Below, piece after piece: positions 9,164-39,750 of a stretch of DNA of 64,000 nt. The notes below the pieces were generated by a model. The model was not told where the DNA came from. It saw only the letters and a list, made by a program, of their open reading frames with translations, and made no database searches. The position numbers and the translations under genes are program-made. Position 1 is the first letter of the stretch. Each line of letters opens with the position of its first letter. Origin of the DNA: an uncultured delta proteobacterium (GTDB lineage Bacteria; Desulfobacterota; Binatia; DP-6); NCBI GenBank assembly GCA_963815115.1, contig CAWFFN010000005.1, forward strand, positions 896,001 through 960,000. The letters run 5' to 3'.

Positions 9164-10480
9164 TCAGCTCGTTGCACGGCCTGCCGGTGTGAGGGGATCG
9201 CGAATGCCGTGTCGCTCCATGCGGCGCCACAGCGTGACGCGCGAGATGCCGAGTGCGGCGGCGGCACGCTGCCGGTTCCAGCGATGGTCGTTCAGCACGC
9301 GGAGGATGCGTGCTCGCTCGTCTGGCCAGAAGCTCCCGTCGAGCATCGGCGCGCGCCGCAGCAGCCCGGCGAGATCGTCTCCTTCGGCGGTGGCCAGGAT
9401 GAGCAGGGACTCGAGCGTGTTCTCGAGCTCGCGCACGTTGCCCGGCCACGAGTGATTGAGGAGCGGGCGCAGCGCGGCCGGCGCCGGCACCGCGAAGCGC
9501 GTGCCGTGGCGACGGTTGAAGGCGGCGACGAAGTGGGAGACCAGCAGCGCGAGGTCGGCGCCGCGCTCGCGCAGCGGTGGGAGATGGATGGTCAGCACGC
9601 GCAGCCGGTAGTACAGGTCGCGCCGGAAGGTCCCCGCCTCCACCATGCGCCAGAGCTCCCGGTTGGAGGCGGCGAGGAGACGGACGTTCACCCGGCGAGC
9701 CGCACTGCCCCCGAGCGGGCGCACCTCGCCGTCCTGGACCACGCGGAGCAGCTTCGCCTGGAGAGGAAGCGGCAGATCCTCGATCTCGTCGAGAAAGAGC
9801 GTGCCCCCGTCGGCGAGTCGCAACGCGCCCGGTCGCGACTCGAGCGCGCCCGTGAAGGCCCCCCGCGCGTGGCCGAAGAACTCGCTCTCCGCCAGCGTCT
9901 CGGGAATCGCCGCGCAGTTGACGGGCACGAAGGCCCGCCCGCTCCGGGGGCCGGCGGTGTGGATTGCCCGCGCCACCACCTCCTTGCCGGTGCCGGTCTC
10001 TCCCTCCAGCAGGACCGGTGCCTCGGTTCGCGCAGCGGTGCGCACGAGCGCCCTCACCCGCTCCATCGCGAGACTGGCGCCGATCAGTCCCGCGAGCGGC
10101 TCGTCGCCGGGGGATGCGACCCGTCGCGGCGGGGCGCAGGCTGCCGCCGCACCGACGCGAGCGCCGATCTCGGGTGCGCCCAGCATCAGGTAGTCGGTCG
10201 CGCCGCCCTTGAGCGCGTCGATCGCCGCTTCGGCCCGATCGTGCTCGCCCACGACCACGACCGGCACCGGCGGCGTGCGGCCGCCGACGGCTGCCATCAC
10301 GCGTCCCAGCTCGGCACGACCCGTGGGGCCGAGCACGATCACGTCGGGACGCTCGACGTCGAGGAGCGACCCTGGATCGCGTACGCTCGCGGACGCGCGC
10401 CGGAGGTCGGCGACGTGAGCCCGCAGCGCCTCGCACAGCGTGGCGGCAGATGGTTCGTCGTCGAGGAGCAGCACCCGCAT
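9164..10480 (-). CDS. sigma54-dependent activator (NtrC-like) with degenerate receiver domain
   Basis: GETGTGKE, VNCAAIP, GAFTGA, LFLDEI, FRRDLYYRL, WPGNVRELEN, C-terminal Fis-type HTH. Confidence 0.9.
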   Translation of the reverse strand: MRVLLLDDEPSAATLCEALRAHVADLRRASASVRDPGSLLDVERPDVIVLGPTGRAELGRVMAAVGGRTPPVPVVVVGEHDRAEAAIDALKGGATDYLMLGAPEIGARVGAAAACAPPRRVASPGDEPLAGLIGASLAMERVRALVRTAARTEAPVLLEGETGTGKEVVARAIHTAGPRSGRAFVPVNCAAIPETLAESEFFGHARGAFTGALESRPGALRLADGGTLFLDEIEDLPLPLQAKLLRVVQDGEVRPLGGSAARRVNVRLLAASNRELWRMVEAGTFRRDLYYRLRVLTIHLPPLRERGADLALLVSHFVAAFNRRHGTRFAVPAPAALRPLLNHSWPGNVRELENTLESLLILATAEGDDLAGLLRRAPMLDGSFWPDERARILRVLNDHRWNRQRAAAALGISRVTLWRRMERHGIRDPLTPAGRATS

Positions 10481-22313: not shown

Positions 22314-22790
<477 letters not shown>

Positions 22791-22838
22791 GGTCGCGAAC
22801 CGGGATGCAGGACCGCCCATGAGGCGGCGTTTGACCGG

Positions 22839-22873
22839 CGTGCTCGGGAGGGCGGAATGCCTTCCCGGGCACG
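22839..22873 (+). other. 15-bp hairpin between glnB and the small ORF (possible terminator or processing stem)
   Basis: CGTGCTCGGGAGGGC-GGAAT-GCCTTCCCGGGCACG; two G-U pairs form only on the + strand. Confidence 0.5.
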
Positions 22874-22901
22874 CGCCGTTTCGCAGCGTGACGGGCCGCT
22901 C

Positions 22902-23144
22902 ATGAACGGAAGGGACGTGGACATCTCCGGCGTGAACGCCCGCCTGGTGGAGGCGGCGGAGACGGGCGAGACGATCGAGGTCATCCTCGTCGTGCGCGGC
23001 AAGGTGCGTCCGGTCCGGGGCGCCGACCGCCGCCGCTGGCGGATGCGGGTCGACAGCGACCACGTGCTGACGTTCCGCGCCGATGCCGTCGTGGCTGCGA
23101 CGCCGATCCCGAAAGGGGCGGGCCCGGGGACACGCGGCCGGTGA
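22902..23144 (+). CDS. Small hypothetical protein (80 aa), possible Sm/Hfq- or SH3-like beta-barrel
   Basis: MNGRDVDISG..LVEAAETGETIEVILVVRGKVR..VLTFRADAVVAATP; GC3-rich codons; fold call is pattern inference. Confidence 0.6.
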   Translation: MNGRDVDISGVNARLVEAAETGETIEVILVVRGKVRPVRGADRRRWRMRVDSDHVLTFRADAVVAATPIPKGAGPGTRGR

Positions 23145-23252
23145 GCACCACCCGTGGAGCGGGTGCTTTCACGGCGAGCAAGCCGATGCCCGTGGAACGA
23201 GCGGTGCTGTCGTCGTCAGGCTCGAAAGGTGCGAGGGGCGAGGGCGTCATCC

Positions 23253-23268
23253 TGGCACCGCCCTTGCT
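23253..23268 (+). promoter_or_regulatory. sigma54 (-24/-12) promoter
   Basis: TGGCACCGCCCTTGCT matches TGGCAC-N5-TTGC(A/T). Confidence 0.8.
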
Positions 23269-23277
23269 CTGAAGACC

Positions 23278-23427
23278 CGTGTAGTCTTCGGCTGGCCCGG
23301 CAAAGACACACCAGTCCCCCCCTGGTGGCCGGCGCGCGGCAGGCCAAAAAGGCGAGTTAGGCAAACGGGTCCGCATAACCTGTTGGGTCGATGGGCAGCC
23401 TGGCCGCCGCCAGCCGAAGACTACGCG
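23278..23427 (+). ncRNA. Putative sigma54-transcribed structured RNA (~150 nt)
   Basis: 19-bp closing stem (23278-23296 with 23409-23427, one G-U) starting at the predicted +1; internal CACCAG-TCCCCCC-CTGGTG hairpin; GCGGCAGGCCA/TGGCCGCCGC stem. Confidence 0.6.
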
Positions 23428-23598
23428 AAAGCCGACCGGCCCGCGCTGCGGCTTGCGGATTGAGCGGTGCGCTTTCGGCCGCGACCAGCCTGCTCGCGAT
23501 CGAGCCCACGCAGTCCGGGAACACGTGCGTGGGGTCAGGACGACGCGGTCCAGCGCGGTCTTTGAACCCCGGGACGAAAGGGTTAGTCTCGGCCGGTC

Positions 23599-25791
23599 AT
23601 GGCGGAGTCCAACGACCGAGCGAATCTCACCCGCTGGCTGGAGCTCGCCCGCAAGGAGCGCCGCGGAGCGGAGCCGGACGACCTGGTCTGGCAGACGCCC
23701 GAGGGTCTGGCGGTCAAGCCGCTCTACTCGCAGGCGGACGTCGCCGGTCTCGACGTCCTCGACACCGTGCCCGGCGAATTCCCGTTCCTGCGCGGCCCGC
23801 GCGCCACCATGTACGCGGAGAAGCCGTGGACGATCCGCCAGTACGCCGGCTTCTCCACCGCCGAGGAGTCGAACGCCTTCTACCGCGCCAACCTCGCTGC
23901 CGGACAGATGGGCCTGTCGGTCGCCTTCGATCTCGCCACCCATCGCGGCTACGACAGCGATCACCCGCGCGTCGTGGGCGACGTCGGCAAGGCCGGCGTC
24001 GCGATCGACTCCGTCGAGGACATGAAGATCCTCTTCGACGGCGTGCCGCTCGACAAGATGTCCGTGTCGATGACCATGAACGGCGCCGTGCTGCCGGTGC
24101 TGGCGAGCTTCATCGTGGCCGGCGAGGAGCAGGGCGTGCCGCGGGCCAGGCTCACCGGGACCATCCAGAACGACATCCTGAAGGAGTTCATGGTCCGCAA
24201 CACCTACATCTACCCGCCGGCACCCTCGATGCGGATCGCGGCCGACATCATCGAGTACACGTCGAAGGAGATGCCGCGCTTCAACTCGATCTCGATCTCG
24301 GGCTACCACATGCAGGAGGCCGGGGCGACGTGCGATCTCGAGCTGGCGTTCACCATTGCGGACGGGCTCGAGTACGTGCGCGCCGCGCTCTCGAAAGGGC
24401 TCGACATCGACGCCTTCGCGGGGCGCCTGTCGTTCTTCTTCGCCATCGGGATGAGCTTCTACATGGAGGTGGCGAAGCTGCGCGCGGCGCGTCTCCTGTG
24501 GGCCACGCTGATGAGGAAGCACTTCGGGCCCAAGCAGGCGGCCTCGCTGATGCTCCGGACGCACTGCCAGACCTCGGGCGCGAGCCTCACCGAGCAGGAC
24601 CCCTTCAACAACATCGTCCGCACCACCATCGAGGCCATGGCCGCCGTCTTCGGCGGCACCCAGAGCCTGCACACGAACTCCTTCGACGAGGCCATCGCGC
24701 TGCCGACCGACGCCTCGGCACGCGTCGCCCGCAACACCCAGCTCATCCTCCAGCTCGAGACCGGGATCCCGAAGGTGATCGACCCCTGGGGCGGCTCGTA
24801 CTTCATGGAGGCTCTGACCCACGCGCTCGCGGCGAAGGCGCTCACCATCATCGACGAGGTCGAGCAGCTCGGCGGCATGACCAAGGCGATAGAGGCCGGC
24901 ATGCCGAAGCTGCGCATCGAGGAGGCTGCCGCCCGCCGTCAGGCGCGCGTCGACCGGGGCGAGGACGTGATCGTCGGCGTGAACAAGTTCAAGCTGGCGG
25001 AGGAGCCCGAGATCGACACGCGCGAGATCGACAACACGGCGGTGCGCGAGGCGCAGGTACGCGGTCTCGAGCGCATCCGCGCCACCCGCGACGCGGGCAA
25101 GGTCCGTGACACGCTGGCGGCACTCGTGCGCTGCGCGGAGACGGGGGAGGGAAACCTCCTCGGGTTCGCGGTCGAAGCGGCGCGGGCGCGGGCGACGATC
25201 GGCGAGATCTCGGACGCCCTCGAGAGCGTCTGGGGCCGCTTCCAGGCCCAGATCCGGTCGATCTCCGGGGTCTACGGCGGGCACTTCGCGGACGACGCCG
25301 ACTGGAAGGCAATGCGCGAGGAGATCGACCGCTTCGTACACGATCAGGGCCGGCGGCCGCGACTCCTCGTGGCGAAGGTGGGCCAGGACGGGCACGATCG
25401 CGGCGCCAAGGTGATCGCGACCGCCTTTGCCGACCTCGGGTTCGACGTGGACGTCGGCACGCTCTTCCAGACGCCCGAGGAGGTGGCACGCCAGGCGGTC
25501 GAGAACGACGTGCACGTGGTCGGCATCTCGACCCAGTCGGGCGGCCACAAGACGCTCGTGCCGCAGCTCGTCCGCGAGCTCGAGCGCCTCGGCGCCGGGG
25601 ACATCGTGGTCACGGTCGGCGGCATCATCCCGGCGAAGGACTACCGGATGCTCGAGCAGGCGGGCGTCAAGGCGGTCTTCGGCCCGGGCACGAACGTGCC
25701 GAAGGCGGCGCGCCGCGTGCTCGAGCTGATCAAGGTTCCGACCCGAGACTTCGTCTCGGGTCGGACGGGGAGCGAGCGTGCGACGTCTTGA
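23599..25791 (+). CDS. scpA: Methylmalonyl-CoA mutase
   Basis: [52 protein letters not shown]12 motif. Confidence 0.95.
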
Positions 25792-26001
25792 CCGGTGCGA
25801 TCGTCGTGCCGCGAGCGGCGAAGCCGCCGCGGCAGACGAGCCGGCAGCGGAAGCGACATGCTCGTGAGCGGCGAACGCTCGCCTCTGGCCTCTCCCAAGG
25901 GTTGCCGCGCCGGCTTTGCCGGCCGCGGCACGGCGGTCGTCGGGTTCACGGGGCGCCACACGCTCGCCTCCCCTCTCGCCCCGAGACGAAGTCTCGGGGC
26001 G
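25737..26001 (+). repeat. Nested palindromic dispersed element, copy B
   Basis: Terminal hairpins TCCGACCCGAGAC-TTC-GTCTCGGGTCGGA and CGCCCCGAGAC-GAA-GTCTCGGGGCG; same inner hairpin pair and CTCGCCTCCCCTCTCG block as copy A. Confidence 0.85.
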
Positions 26002-26006
26002 TGGTA

Positions 26007-27017
26007 ATGCGGCTCGCGGCCGACCTCGTGGCCGGCGATCGCCGCGCGCTCGCCAAGGCGATCACGCTGGTCGAGAGCACGCGCGGCGACGACCAGGCGG
26101 GGGCGCAGCGGCTGCTCGAGCAGGTCCTGCCCCGGACCGGGCGCGCCGTCCGTGTCGGCGTGACCGGCGCGCCGGGCGCGGGGAAGAGCACGTTCATCGA
26201 GGCGTTCGGGCTCTATCTCATCGCGCGGGGGAAGCGCGTCGCGGTGCTGGCCGTCGATCCGTCGAGCGCGCGCTCCGGCGGCAGCATCCTCGGCGACAAG
26301 ACGCGCATGGCCCGGCTGGCGGTCGCGCCGGAGGCGTTCATCCGGCCCAGCCCGTCTGGGGGATCGCTCGGCGGCGTCGCCCGCCGCACTCGCGAGGCCA
26401 TTCTCGTGTGCGAGGCGGCGGGCTACGACGTCGTGCTGGTCGAGACCGTCGGCGTGGGTCAGTCCGAGGTGGCGGTCGCCTCGATGGTCGACTTCTTCCT
26501 GGTGCTGATGCTCCCGGGCGCGGGCGACGAGCTGCAGGGCATCAAGAAGGGCATCCTCGAGCTCGCCGACGCGCTCGCGGTCAACAAGTGCGACGGCGAC
26601 AACGTGCGGCGCGCGGAGCGCGCGGCGGGCGAGTACCGGGCAGCGCTGCACCTCTTCCGTCACGTGAGCGCGAACTGGGACCCTCCCGTGTTGCTGGTGA
26701 GCGCCCTCGAAGGTCGGGGCATGGAGCAGGTGTGGGCCACGGTCGAGGACCACAGGGCACGCCTGAGCGCGTCCGGCGAGCTGGCCGCACGGCGCCGCGA
26801 CCAGCAGCAGCAGTGGTTCGTGTCGATGCTGCGCGACGGCCTGGAGGAGCGCTTCCGCCAGCGCCAGGACGTCCGCCGGCTCCTCCCCGACCTGGAGGCG
26901 GCGGTCGTGGCGGCGAAGATCACGCCCACGGAGGCGGCGCGCCGATTGCTCGCACTGCTCGACGACGGCGGCGACGGCGGCGAGCGCGCGAGCGCGCCGC
27001 GCCGTGCGCGGGGGTGA
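26007..27017 (+). CDS. meaB: Methylmalonyl-CoA mutase-associated GTPase
   Basis: [59 protein letters not shown]. Confidence 0.92.
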
Positions 27018-27020
27018 ACC

Positions 27021-28035
27021 GTGAAGATCCGCGTCGGACTCGGACTCGCCCAGCTGCCGTTCGCGGACGCGCGGGCGTTCTGGCGCTTCATCGAGCGCTG
27101 CGAGGCGAGCGACCTCGACTCCCTGTGGCAGACCGACCGCCTGGTGTCCTCGGTGCCCCAGCTCGAGCCGATGAGCGTGATGGCGGCGCTCGCGGGCGGC
27201 ACCGAGCGGCTCAAGTTCGGCATGAACGTCACGGTGGTGAGCTTCCGCGACCCGCTCGTGCTCGCCAAGGAGTGCGCCACGATCGACTTCCTGAGCGGCG
27301 GCCGGTTGCTGCCCGCCTTCGGCGTCGGTCCGGCGATCGCCCCCGAATGGGCTGCCACCAGCCGGCCGTACGCCGGCAGCGGCGCGCCGCGCGGACGAGG
27401 CGCTGGAGATCATGGCGCGTCTGTGGACGGGCGAGCGCCTGACCTTCACGGGCGAGCACTACCGCTACGCCGGCGCGCGCATCGCCCCGCTGCCGGTGCA
27501 GCGGCCGCTGCCGCTGTGGATCGGCGGCAGCAGTCCGGCCTCGATCCGGCGCACGGCGCGGCTGGGAACCGGGTGGCTGGCCGGTCCGCAGAGCCCGGAG
27601 CAGGTGGGGCCGGTCATCGCGGCGATCCGCGAGGCCAGCGCCGCCGCCGGCCGGCCGATCGATCCCGACCACTACGGGGTCACCGTCCCGTTCCGCTTCG
27701 GATCGCCCGACGAGCCGCTGGTGCAGGCCGTCGGCACGCAGCTCGCGCAGCGCAATCAGGGTGCCGATCCCGCGCGTCACGTCGCGATCGGCGGCGCGGC
27801 CCACATCCTCGACCGCCTCGACGAGTTCCGGGCGGGGGGCGCGTCGAAGTTCGTGCTGCTCCCCATCGCCGCCGGGGACGCCGAGGTGCTCGATCAGACC
27901 GAGCGCCTGATCGGTGAGGTCCTCCCGGTGGTTCACGGGCCCGAGGGCAACGGCTGGCGAAAGCGCCCGGCGGCGGAGTACACTACACCTGCCGCGCCCG
28001 CCGCGCGCACGCCCACGAGGGAGCCCGAGCGATGA
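27021..28035 (+). pseudogene. LLM-class flavin-dependent oxidoreductase with apparent +1 frameshift near 27387 (probably sequencing error)
   Basis: DSLWQTDRL, LAKECATIDFLSGGRL in one frame; ADEALEIMARLWTGE..PLWIGG in the next; removing one C joins them. Confidence 0.75.
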
Positions 28036-30072
28036 CACGCGAAGCGCACCTGCTCTACGACGCCGACGGCAAGCCCACGCACGATGCGCCGTGGATCTTC
28101 CGCACCTACGCCGGGCACACCAACGTCGCAGGAGTCGAACGCGCTCTACCGGGCGAATCTCTCCCGCGGCCAGACCGGCCTCTCGATCGCCTTCGACCTG
28201 CCCACCCAGTGCGGCTACAGCTCCGACCATCCGCTGGCGGTGCCGGAGATCGGCAAGGTGGGCGTTCCCGTCAACACGCTCGACGACTTCGCGCTGCTCT
28301 TCGACGGCATTCCCGTCGACGAGATCAACACCTCGATGACGATCAACGCGACCGCGATGTGGCTGCTGGCGCTCTACGTCGCCCTCGCCGAGCAGCGCGG
28401 CGTCGACCCGGCGCGGCTCCAGGGCACGACGCAGAACGACATCGTGAAGGAGTACCTGGCGCGCGGCACCTACATCTTCCCGCCGCGCGAGTCCGTCCGC
28501 CTCATCGTCGACATGTACGAGCACTGCCTGCACCACGTCCCGCGCTGGAACGCGTCGAACATCTGCTCGTACCACCTGCAGGAGGCGGGCGCGACGCCGA
28601 CGCAGGAGCTGGCCTTCGCGCTCGCCACCGCCATGGCCGTGCTCGACGCCGTGCGCGCGCGCGGCGGCTTCAGCGGCGACGACTTCGAGCGCTGCGTCGG
28701 GCGCGTGTCCTTCTTCGTCAACGCCGGCATCCGCTTCGTCGAGGAGATGTGCAAGCTGCGCGCCTTCGCCGAGATGTGGGACGAGATCACGCGCGACCGG
28801 TACGGCGTGACGAATCCGAAGTACCGGCTCTTCCGCTACGGCGTGCAGGTGAACTCCCTCGGCCTCACCGAGGAGCAGCCCGAGAACAACGCCTGGCGCA
28901 TCCTCATCGAGGCGCTCGGGGTCACGCTCAGCCGCACCGCCCGCTGCCGGGCGCTCCAGCTGCCGACGTGGAACGAGGCGCTCAGCCTGCCGCGGCCCTG
29001 GGACCAGCAGTGGTCGCTGCGCCTCCAGCAGATCCTGGCCTACGAGACCGACCTGCTCGAGTATCCCGACCTGTTCGACGGCTCGCCCGTGGTGGCGTCC
29101 AAGGTCGCGGCGCTCAAGGCGGCCGCCTACACGGAGATCGCGACCATCGAGGAGCTGGGCGGCGCCATCGAGGCGATCGAGTCGGGCTATCTGAAGGCGG
29201 CGCTGGTTCGCAGCCAGGCGCAGCGGATGGCGCGCATCAATGCGGGCGACGCGGTGGTCGTCGGCCGCAACCGCTGGACCGAGGGCCTGCCGTCGCCGCT
29301 GCTCTCGGGCGAGGACGGAGGACTCTTCCGGGTCGACCCCGGGTCCGCCGCCCAGACGCTCGAGATGCTGCGCGCCACCCGCAGCCGGCGCAGCCAGGCG
29401 GCGGTGGACGACGCGCTTCGCCGCCTGCGTGACGACGCGGTCGCGGGCAAGAATCTCATGCCGGCGTCCATCACCTGCGCGAAGGCGCGGGTCGCGACCG
29501 GCGAATGGGCGGACGTGCTGCGGCAGATCTTCGGCGAGTACCGGCCGGCGACGGGAATCGACGGCCAGCAGCTCGGCCTCGAGAACGCCCGGGTCGCCGC
29601 GGTGCGCGCCCGGGTCGCCGCCTGGACGGCGGGGCACGGGACGCGGCCGCGCATCGTCGTCGGCAAGGCCGGGCTCGACGGCCACTCGAACGGCTCGGAG
29701 ATGATCGCGGTCGCCGCCAAGCACGCCGGCTTCGACGTGGTCTACGGCGGCATCCGCATGACGCCCGAGGAGATCGTCCAGTCGGCCGTCGAGGAGGATG
29801 CCTCCGTGCTCGGCCTCTCCGTCCTCTCCGGGTCGCATCTCGAGATCGCGCGCATGGTGCTCGAGGCGCTCGAGCGACAGGGAGCGCGCGAAGCCATCCC
29901 CGTCGTCCTCGGCGGCATCGTGCCGGATGCGGACGTCGAGCCGCTCGGGCGCCTCGGCGTCAAGGCGGTCTTCACGCCCCGCGACTTCGACCTGATGGCC
30001 GTGATGGACCGCATCCTCGACGTCATCGGTGCGCCCCGCGATGAGCCCGAGGCACGCGTCGCCAGCGCGTGA
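28032..30072 (+). CDS. ecm: Ethylmalonyl-CoA mutase (MeaA/Ecm) with apparent +1 frameshift near 28131
   Basis: PWIFRTYAGH then ESNALYRANLSRGQTGLSIAFDLPTQ, RYGVQVNSLGLTE, WNEALSLPRPWDQQWSLR, GLDGHSNG. Confidence 0.88.
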
Positions 30073-31087
30073 GCCGGCGAGGCGTGGCGGCGCGCCCCCG
30101 GCGCTCGATGCCGGCGTGCGGGCGTTGCTCGAGCGCGCGGCACGGCTCGAGAAGCACCCGCTCGCGCGTCTGATCACGCTGGTCGAGCAGGAGCACGACG
30201 CCGGTCGCGCCGGGCGTGCCGCGCTGTTCCGCCACCTGGCGGCCCATGCCGACGCCTACCCGCTCCGCGCCCGCGTGATCGGCATCACCGGAACGCCGGG
30301 GTCGGGAAAGTCGACGCTGATCGGGCGGATCGCCCTCGAGCTGCTGCACGATGACCCGAGCGCGCGCGTCGCGGTGCTGGCGATCGATCCCTCGAGCGCC
30401 GAGTCGGGCGGGGCGCTCCTCGGCGACCGCGTGCGCACGCATTTTCCCGTCGGGGAGCGCCGCATCTTCTTTCGCTCCCAGGCGACCGACGGCGATCTCG
30501 GCGGCGTCGGGCGCCGCACCTTCGCGGTCACGCGTCTCCTGCGTCACCTCTTCGATTTCGTCTTCGTGGAGACGGTCGGCATCGGGCAGAGCGAGATCGA
30601 GGTCACGGCGCTCGCCGATCTGACGGCGCTCGTCCTGCAGCCGCTCGCGGGCGACCATGTCCAGTTCCTGAAGGCGGGCGTGATGGAGGTGCCCGACGTG
30701 TTCGTCATCAACAAGTGCGACGAGGCCGCGCTGGCTCGGCGGAGCCTGCACGAGCTGCGCTCGGCGCTCGACACGGCCCGCGTCGGCCGCGAGGCCCATC
30801 CCATCTTCAAGACGAGCGCACTGCGCGGAACCGGGATCGCGGAGCTGGCCGCCTTCCTGCGCCGGACGGTGCAGCCACCCGACGCGACGTCCCTGCGGCG
30901 CCGCGAGCGCCACTTCCTCGCCCGGGCGGTGGCGGGACGTTACGGCCGCTTCGGTGTGGAGGAGCTCGAGCGGGTGATGGCGGCGTGGCCCGCCGAGCGT
31001 GCCAGGCGGGCCTCCTACGAGGAGCTCGAGGACGCCGCGCTGGAGGAGATCCGCGGCCGCATCCGGCCGCGCGAGGCGGGGGCGTAG
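30041..31087 (+). CDS. Second MeaB/ArgK-family GTPase
   Basis: GTPGSGKST, DPSSAESGGALLGDRVR, VETVGIGQSE, INKCD; start uncertain. Confidence 0.85.
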   Translation: MSPRHASPAREPARRGGAPPALDAGVRALLERAARLEKHPLARLITLVEQEHDAGRAGRAALFRHLAAHADAYPLRARVIGITGTPGSGKSTLIGRIALELLHDDPSARVAVLAIDPSSAESGGALLGDRVRTHFPVGERRIFFRSQATDGDLGGVGRRTFAVTRLLRHLFDFVFVETVGIGQSEIEVTALADLTALVLQPLAGDHVQFLKAGVMEVPDVFVINKCDEAALARRSLHELRSALDTARVGREAHPIFKTSALRGTGIAELAAFLRRTVQPPDATSLRRRERHFLARAVAGRYGRFGVEELERVMAAWPAERARRASYEELEDAALEEIRGRIRPREAGA

Positions 31088-39096: not shown

Positions 39097-39387
39097 GGGC
39101 GAGAAGGGCGCTGCACGCCAAAACCCTTCCGATCCGGAATACGCGACGGCCGTCGTCCCGGCCTCCGTGCCGGCGGCGGCGCGCGGGATGCCCGGCCCGC
39201 GTCCGGCAGCTCCGCCCGTCACCCCGATGTTCGATGCTGCGCATCGAGCCGGTGGGGAGATGCTCCGGTGCAGAGTAAAATGTGGGCCTGCTAAGCAAGC
39301 TAGCATTGACTCCACGGGGACCCTTCTGGCAGGCATGATGGTGAGAGGACCGCGCCCGAGCGCGGGCGCGGTCATCGGGAGGCAACG

Positions 39388-39750
39388 ATGGAGCAGCAAG
39401 CGCGACGTGCAGCCGGACAGGGCGAGCGCGGCGACGACTCGGGGGTCACCTGGCTCGCCCCGCTCCTGCCACCCCAGGTCCTCGGACGTCCGTATCGCTC
39501 GCCCGAGCAGCAGCTGATGGCTGCGGTGCTCGAGGATGCCATGCGAGAGCTGTCGCGGCCCGTGCAGGTGTGGATCGGCGCGGCGGGGCGACAGCGGGCC
39601 GAGGTCCAGACCTGGTTCGAGTCGGACGATGTGGCGTGGCCGTTCTCCTTCCTGAACGTCTGCGAGGCGCTCGATCTCGACCCCGCGCGCCTGCGCAGGC
39701 GGATCGCGCGGCTCGGGTCGGACGGCGGCCGCGTGCTGGCACTGCGATGA
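39388..39750 (+). CDS. Hypothetical small helical protein
   Basis: GGAGG RBS; PEQQLMAAVLEDA...WFESDDVAWPFSFLNVCEALDLDP; ATGA overlap with next gene. Confidence 0.75.
   Translation: MEQQARRAAGQGERGDDSGVTWLAPLLPPQVLGRPYRSPEQQLMAAVLEDAMRELSRPVQVWIGAAGRQRAEVQTWFESDDVAWPFSFLNVCEALDLDPARLRRRIARLGSDGGRVLALR

Follow-up and report, generated by a model that had tools for sequence, protein, structure and literature searches.

The stretch of DNA analysed here (the window) comprises 64,000 nucleotides (nt) of contig CAWFFN010000005.1 from an uncultured bacterium of the Binatia lineage DP-6. It carries, in this order, genes for a cyclase, a P-II nitrogen regulatory protein and a small protein designated orf95, followed by a sigma-54-type promoter with a structured RNA, and then genes for a methylmalonyl-CoA mutase and MeaB. 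The structured RNA is the subject of this report. It occupies positions 23278–23431 of the plus strand and, on the basis of folding, covariance models and covariation, consists of a closing helix (P1), a three-way junction, two further helical branches (P2 and P3) and a conserved A-rich 3′ tail. The data show that this is a conserved, strand-specific structured RNA lying behind a conserved sigma-54 promoter, that it is restricted to one lineage, and that its family is not in Rfam. The original prediction for this locus, made from the sequence alone, had proposed the promoter, a 19-base-pair (bp) stem with one G-U pair that works only on the plus strand, and a hairpin with a C-rich loop, and all four were found in place to the base.

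P1 is formed by pairing of the 5′ arm CGTGTAGTCTTCGGCTGGC (23278–23296) with the 3′ arm GCCAGCCGAAGACTACGCG (23409–23427), which closes a plus-strand helix of 19 bp. Its single U-G pair (U23280-G23425) becomes an A-C mismatch on the minus strand. P2 (23297–23332, plus strand) has the base CCGGC/GCCGG (23297–23301 with 23328–23332), an A-rich internal loop and an apical hairpin (23309–23327) made up of CACCAG (23309–23314), the loop UCCCCCC (23315–23321) and CUGGUG (23322–23327). P3 (23336–23407, plus strand) has the base GCGGCAGG/CCUGGCCGC with a bulged G, A-rich unpaired stretches and a variable distal arm, the length of which differs between forms of the RNA. The predicted folding energy of the plus strand is −86.7 kcal/mol, compared with −68.4±4.5 kcal/mol for 200 dinucleotide shuffles (z −4.09, none of the 200 being as stable), and for the minus strand the corresponding z score is −2.33 with 4 of 200 shuffles as stable.

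The fold is maintained by compensatory change. Among 8 close homologues, 9 of the 52 predicted pairs stay paired through changes on both sides. Pairs of the P2 stem covary (CG to GC in two and GC to AU in one of the eight sequences), while the UCCCCCC loop is invariant and is unpaired in the fold. An alignment of 51 distinct metagenome copies, which was fitted to the covariance model, has 93.8% of its cells in standard pairs, as opposed to 28–48% when the 3′ partners are slid by 1–3 columns. It contains 22 double-change pairs compared with 10.9±1.7 in shuffles, and none of 500 shuffles reached 22. Within P3, columns 81-182 of this alignment hold 26 GC, 21 UA and 4 UG pairs and columns 79-184 hold 44 CG and 6 GC pairs. 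The outer pairs of P1 also covary (for example, AU in four, GC in three and GU in one). Across the family hardly any variation is seen in the inner 10 bp, CUCGGCUGGC/GCCAGCCGRG, although in the metagenome set the invariance of the inner P1 and of the P2 base arises by construction because the retrieval pattern fixes both. In the genome set, which was gathered without that pattern, one homologue (G014) has U-A in place of a C-G pair of the inner P1, a compensated change. U-G and G-U pairs are frequent in the metagenome alignment (for example, UG in 26, GU in 24 and UG in 33), and the two covariance models used, R1 and R2, score 174 and 158 bits on the plus strand of the window locus, compared with 32.5 bits on the minus strand. 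The frequent U-G and G-U pairs and this asymmetry of score (174 versus 32.5 bits) place the RNA on the plus strand. The core common to all forms consists of CUCGGCUGGC/GCCAGCCGRG, CCGGC/GCCGG, a YGY linker, GCGGYAGG/CCUGGCCGC and the A-rich 3′ tail.

The promoter, read from the sequence of the plus strand, is TGGCAC-N5-TTGCT (23253–23268), with TGGCAC at 23253–23258, CGCCC as the N5 spacer and TTGCT at 23264–23268. The GG of the −24 element lies at 23254–23255 and the GC of the −12 element at 23266–23267, and the spacing matches the sigma-54 criterion TGGCAC-N5-TTGCW. From this geometry transcription is predicted to start near 23278–23280, at the first pairs of P1. The exact pattern occurs once in the window, and with one mismatch allowed there are four occurrences compared with 3.1 expected. 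Since the single promoter site alone is not beyond chance, the case rests on comparison with relatives. GG-N8-TTGC is present no more than 60 nt upstream of the RNA in 62 of the 63 distinct homologues with enough upstream sequence, compared with a background of 262 of 9520 segments of 60 nt (2.8%) from the same loci. The C of TTGC lies 21–22 nt before a conserved TCGG in most forms and 28 nt before it in many short forms. Relatives therefore keep both the promoter (62/63) and the fold with its covariation (22 double-change pairs), as would be expected if the original prediction was correct.

A further element upstream of the promoter was defined by the conserved columns in an alignment of 17 long-form upstream regions. 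It reads TGC-N11-GCA followed by TGCCCG-N3-GAACGAGCG (23164–23203, plus strand) and in the long forms sits 50–90 nt 5′ of the −24 GG. The element has what we take to be the outline of an NtrC-type dyad and is a candidate site for an enhancer-binding protein, at which an activator may bind. The full motif was found in the genome only at the RNA locus, among five loose matches, and for that reason no regulon was drawn. The genome has one copy of rpoN (PF04552, 208 bits), 49 matches to the sigma-54 activator family PF00158, about 38 of which are strong (>160 bits), and 55 sites that fit YGGCAY-N5-TTGCW. The strong activator matches and the promoter-like sites indicate that the organism relies heavily on sigma-54. 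One such activator gene (PF00158) lies in the window at 9584–10087 on the minus strand, 13 kb upstream of the RNA. In related short-form loci a Pfam scan of the flanks found no activator gene within 1.5 kb.

The RNA is present as a single copy in the window's genome and in one or two copies per related genome. It was found by BLASTN in 8 relatives and by R1, a covariance model built from 8 sequences, in 16 of the 25 genomes of the window's family, corresponding to 8 of its 14 genera; in the genome collection searched this family makes up the whole order. The second model, R2, returned the same 16 genomes together with a second copy in one of them (G016), and gave no matches in samples of 133 other genomes of the class and 149 other genomes of the phylum searched with stricter filters. 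When 185,579 species genomes were scanned for an exact pattern, 17 loci were obtained, six of which score 65–170 bits with the model and are all in genomes of the same family. The remainder are chance matches in other phyla (28 bits or less, or no model match). The same pattern retrieved 90 stretches from soil metagenome contigs, representing 80 loci; 69 of these loci, with 51 different sequences among them, pass the model (E<1e-6). Genome and metagenome copies together comprise 66 distinct RNAs. The proposal that this is an undescribed structured RNA of ∼150 nt is borne out to the extent that Rfam 15 gave no match at the gathering threshold in the 64-kb window, and it gave none at E≤1 in 13 homologous loci. 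The literature searches made gave no published description of the RNA, which does not by itself prove that there is none.

The RNAs fall into three size classes: long (156–161 nt, the type in the window), middle (134–148 nt) and short (94–125 nt). Of the 66 distinct copies, 46 have a C-rich or CCUCC-like P2 loop, 18 a loop of 4–5 nt and two a loop of another kind; the short forms are without the C-rich loop. One copy, in G009 (L052/L016, G009:C153:4951-5085), has a P3 of reduced length and, at the P1 3′ arm, a directly repeated stretch of ∼15 nt (GCCGGGGGTTGCCCG twice), and may be decaying or rearranged.

The P-II gene (22392–22790, plus strand; PF00543, E 6e-32) precedes orf95 (22902–23144, plus strand), which probably encodes about 80 amino acids from the ATG at 22902. 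Upstream of the long-form RNAs orf95 is the constant gene: of 21 long or related forms, 18 have it on the same strand, ending 122–180 nt before the RNA, and in relatives it is itself usually preceded by a P-II or Amt gene. A homologue of orf95 is present in 19 of the 25 family genomes, five of which lack the RNA according to the model (G007, G012, G015, G017 and G022). The protein has no match in Pfam or NCBIfam and its AlphaFold model has a mean confidence score (pLDDT) of 73.7. The possibility that orf95 is an Sm/Hfq-like RNA binder was set aside, the profile search against PDB sequences giving E values of only 0.31 and 0.42. Structure searches gave no convincing match: the best Foldseek match had an E value of 0.17 (weak RelE/YoeB-like matches), and VIA-align returned only beta-propeller blades with Z scores of at most 4.5. 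In two genomes without the long-form RNA, G007 (L175, G007:C16) and G016 (L179, G016:C129), the orf95 homologue is followed after ∼100 nt by a sigma-54 motif (GGCAT/GGCAC-N5-GTTGC) that leads within ∼35 nt into an open reading frame (ORF) with a hydrophobic N-terminus. An element similar to GAACGAGC also precedes this motif in G007. These ORFs look truncated and have no Pfam match, and that they encode permeases is a guess without support. Since in both the motif after orf95 runs into an ORF without the RNA, the promoter after orf95 seems to be older or more widespread there than the RNA itself.

The mutase gene begins with an ATG at 23599, 172 nt past the P1 stem (PF01642, E 1.6e-233), in agreement with the distance of ∼170 nt originally given, and is followed by MeaB. 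The alternative offered in the original prediction, that the RNA is a leader of this mutase operon, is disfavoured. A mutase gene lies 61–168 nt downstream in 10 long-form loci. Elsewhere a variety of genes follows, often in convergent orientation: a FAD monooxygenase in G005 and G018, where the mutase is 1.3 kb further on; a DUF7508 gene in G010; a MazF-like gene whose end lies 17 nt past the RNA in L101; and an NHL-like ORF ending 4 nt after it in L149. Other long forms are followed by OsmC (L151), an ORF of unknown function (L081) or Amt (L103). In addition, the mutase has a conserved promoter-like motif of its own, TTGAAC-N16-TAGTCT (23562–23589, plus strand), which was read from the sequence, resembles a −35/−10 pair and leaves 9 nt to the mutase ATG. 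At an equal distance from that ATG, TTGAAC recurs with a TAnnnn box in G001, G002, G003, G006, G023, L086, L117 and L133, while the intervening DNA, from the RNA up to the motif, shows no conservation. A stricter sigma-70 scan did not call the site, which is retained only as a conserved motif; it suggests a candidate promoter from which a nearly leaderless mutase mRNA would be made. The variable, often convergent downstream genes and the separate promoter-like motif together make a leader of the mutase unlikely, and the RNA appears to be its own transcription unit in this genome. Beyond it the window contains tandem mutase–MeaB pairs (23599–31087), the first consisting of the mutase at 23599–25791 and MeaB at 25788–27017 and the second of a mutase more divergent in sequence at 28084–30072 and a MeaB-like GTPase at 30029–31087, with a luciferase-like monooxygenase (27021–27917) between the two.

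Middle and short forms of the RNA are found in other settings. The 145-nt forms (G021 type; also L046 and ∼20 metagenome loci) follow a P450 gene and are followed by a T-rich stretch, a ParA-like ORF, ParB and bactofilin. They have a perfect inverted repeat, GGCGGAC-N12-GTCCGCC, just 5′ of the −24 element, and the T-rich stretch lies 10–25 nt past P1 ahead of the ParA-like ORF; the repeat and the T-rich stretch may serve this subgroup alone as operator and terminator. Copies from other genera precede a small ORF (∼100–150 amino acids) with the motif LPxQxF..RRLMxAVLxDA...WLM...PLxFxDVCDxLGLD. The proteins, which are helix-turn-helix-like, have no match in Pfam or NCBIfam, and the window's genome contains 21–23 paralogues, none of which adjoins the RNA. 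One of these is located in the window at ∼39310–39747 on the plus strand (G000:C5:935310-935747), and further members are found at L116:1125-1499(-), L089:1158-1499(-) and elsewhere. The multi-copy proteins (∼100–170 amino acids) have the motif LPxQxF...E(K/Q)RLMxAVLEDA...W..SDD..WPFSFxNxCxxLGLD, and some of the paralogues have a sigma-54-like motif upstream or an adjoining activator gene. It is one subfamily of them that directly follows the RNA in other genera, and in L091 and L099 its gene is itself followed by an AAA_22 ATPase gene.

All four soil metatranscriptome runs searched (four studies) contain contigs with relatives of the RNA, at 85–99% likeness over 23288–23430. The flanks at 23100–23287 and 23431–23613 had no cover in the four runs, which is not evidence for the ends of a transcript. 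One contig of 138 nt (X19) is circularly permuted, with 23399 joined to 23292 and a 30-base overlap of its ends. The two are joined at CTGGCC, a sequence common to the P1/P2 and P3/P1 borders, and our simplest guess is an artefact of reverse transcription or assembly at CTGGCC, the alternative being a real rearranged or circular molecule.

We propose that the RNA is a stand-alone regulatory small RNA (sRNA), driven by sigma-54 and an activator in response to a nitrogen signal, whose C-rich loop blocks Shine–Dalgarno regions, a proposal for which we judge the chances to be even. An activator bound at the candidate site (23164–23203) would fire the sigma-54 promoter (23253–23268), with nitrogen status the probable signal because of the neighbourhood of P-II, Amt and orf95; the link to nitrogen is suggested by neighbouring genes only, including the Amt gene that follows the RNA in L103. 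The transcript (23278–23431, plus strand) would fold as a three-way junction in which the 19-bp helix joins the 5′ and 3′ ends, and the exposed, conserved P2 loop UCCCCCC would pair in trans with G-rich Shine–Dalgarno regions and block translation. The junction and the long P1 would provide stability and set the 3′ end in the absence of a classical terminator and of Hfq. A terminator scan of the plus strand from 22700 to 23800 gave no terminator-like site and no T run after the RNA, and Hfq (PF17209) was not found in the genome, which is rated 100% complete. With neither a terminator nor an hfq gene found, the RNA ends are probably protected by P1.

Several observations weigh against this proposal. 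The best-conserved part of the family is the three-way junction with its helix bases rather than the P2 loop, and 18 of the 66 copies have a loop of 4–5 nt, mostly GNRA-like, in place of the C-rich one, which means that the C-rich loop is not the only function of the family. In 16 distinct middle and short copies the small ORF starts within 5–30 nt of the RNA, an arrangement that looks cis-acting. An observation on the other side, in favour of pairing by the loop, is that among copies that precede a small protein gene, those with a C-rich loop have GGAG, GAGG or GGGGG before the start codon, and those with a GNRA loop, where the start codon is 5–11 nt after the RNA, have no such motif. That loop type tracks the presence of the motif fits an anti-Shine–Dalgarno role of the loop in cis, with the correlation drawn by eye from few and related sequences. 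A genome-wide search for G-rich targets, which had been suggested at the outset, named no target: there are 2077 runs of at least six G in the genome and 220 of them lie 3–14 nt before plausible start codons, too many candidate sites for any one target to be singled out. One homologue, G014, is the only one of the 63 without a recognizable sigma-54 motif. The metatranscriptome contigs cannot show the ends or strand of a transcript and may reflect DNA carry-over or read-through, and two of them (X17 and X20) extend into the promoter and downstream flank of the relative concerned. The dependence of the metagenome alignment on the model and on the retrieval pattern, as given above, counts on the same side.

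The conservation of the junction core and the absence of the C-rich loop from the short forms make a protein-binding role a serious rival, one that we consider possible but less likely than the main proposal. A protein would recognize the junction core and the RNA would titrate or deliver it, as GlmY and CrcZ do, the candidate partners being the orf95 product and the small helix-turn-helix-like family. Such a role would account for helices that are conserved beyond the needs of pairing and are common to long, middle and short forms with differing loops. Ends that are paired in a long helix, without terminator or Hfq, are typical of stable protein-bound RNAs, and this is the arrangement seen here. 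The linkage of orf95 to 18 of 21 long or related forms, and the small protein gene after the RNA in 16 distinct copies with its 21–23 paralogues in the window's genome, would each supply a partner. However, profile and structure searches gave orf95 no known RNA-binding fold, orf95 also occurs in the five genomes without the RNA by model, the RNA has no repeated protein-binding motifs, and the invariance of the core is partly imposed on the metagenome set by the search pattern. A broader and rather doubtful reading is that the three-way junction represents a modular RNA domain of a new kind, placed at the +1 position of different sigma-54 promoters, whether before small proteins, before parA or alone, which would bind a protein or small molecule and serve as a cis-acting leader or, where the downstream gene has been lost, as a free RNA.

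We regard it as unlikely that the RNA is a riboswitch-like 5′ leader that senses a ligand or acts in cis in another way on genes behind certain sigma-54 promoters, which in the window would be orphaned or would lead a read-through mutase–MeaB transcript. A three-way junction with a conserved core does resemble an aptamer, the short forms carry a GNRA-like P2 loop, and a start codon follows within 5–30 nt in 16 distinct copies, Amt in L103, a ParA-like ORF after the 145-nt forms and a mutase on the same strand (61–168 nt) in 10 long-form loci; there is also a weak match (16 bits) to the c-di-GMP-I-GGC riboswitch. Yet P1, at 14–19 bp, is very stable with no evident alternative pairing, which does not suit a switching helix. 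The RNA is followed by convergent genes in G005, G018, G010, L101 and L149, the mutase has its own conserved promoter-like motif behind a spacer that is not conserved, and the riboswitch match falls well short of the gathering score (59) and has no counterpart in 13 relatives. That there is no RNA gene, and that a chance palindrome, bidirectional terminator or repeat element merely lies beside a chance sigma-54-like motif, is highly improbable. Points in its favour are that one exact promoter match in a single window could arise by chance, that the minus strand can fold as well (z −2.33) and that the P2 hairpin of that strand was called terminator-like. Against it, the plus strand has no T run, and both promoter and fold persist in 8 genera and in 69 metagenome loci, together with covariation and G-U pairs specific to one strand. 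A repeat element (repetitive extragenic palindrome or miniature inverted-repeat transposable element) was rejected, there being one full copy in the genome.

Whichever role applies, the conserved promoter, the covariation and about 66 distinct sequences make this a well-supported new RNA family that can be aligned as a candidate for Rfam. Its hosts are uncultured soil bacteria of a sigma-54-rich lineage, apparently without Hfq, and the RNA offers a way into post-transcriptional control, possibly linked to nitrogen, in organisms that only metagenomes have revealed. The occurrence of the junction either alone or directly before the gene of an uncharacterized multi-copy protein is a natural experiment on the interconversion of leaders and free sRNAs. 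The modular reading, if true, would amount to a new class of sigma-54-coupled riboregulator.

Among known RNAs, the c-di-GMP-I-GGC riboswitch (RF03167) shares a three-helix junction and is the only Rfam model that aligns across the element. The three Rfam matches at the window locus are all at chance level, this one being the best below threshold, and with 16 bits against a gathering score of 59, an E value of 0.43 on 551 nt and a 38-nt insertion the RNA is not a member; the lead was dropped when a search of the 13 homologous loci came back empty at E≤1. An Hfq-dependent trans-acting sRNA would be expected to have a U-tail terminator together with Hfq, neither of which was found for the RNA here. 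In sRNAs of the RsaE/RoxS type, C-rich or UCCC loops pair with Shine–Dalgarno sequences. The present RNA is similar in that an exposed C-rich loop is kept while its stem covaries, the pairing with targets being predicted here, and it differs in fold, phylum and promoter type and in the absence of the loop from 18 of 66 family members. Sigma-54-dependent sRNAs have been described in a small number of cultured proteobacteria and myxobacteria. NrsZ of Pseudomonas, NfiS/NfiR and NcS25 of Burkholderia are, as the cited accounts describe them, stand-alone sRNAs driven by sigma-54 and an activator and tied to nitrogen status (PMC4253122, PMC6606865, PMC10117139). The RNA described here has no relation to them in sequence or structure (no Rfam match), its nitrogen control is suggested by its neighbours only, and its genome gave no hfq gene. 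The sigma-54-dependent sRNA Pxr, found in Myxococcus and its myxobacterial relatives, has been described as three stem-loops in a row, encoded between nla19 and a NADH dehydrogenase gene (PMC5568312), and its targets are given as unknown (PMC11928866). In contrast to the tandem stem-loops of Pxr, the RNA here is a junction closed by a 19-bp helix and encoded beside orf95 and P-II, and it is thus distinct from Pxr.

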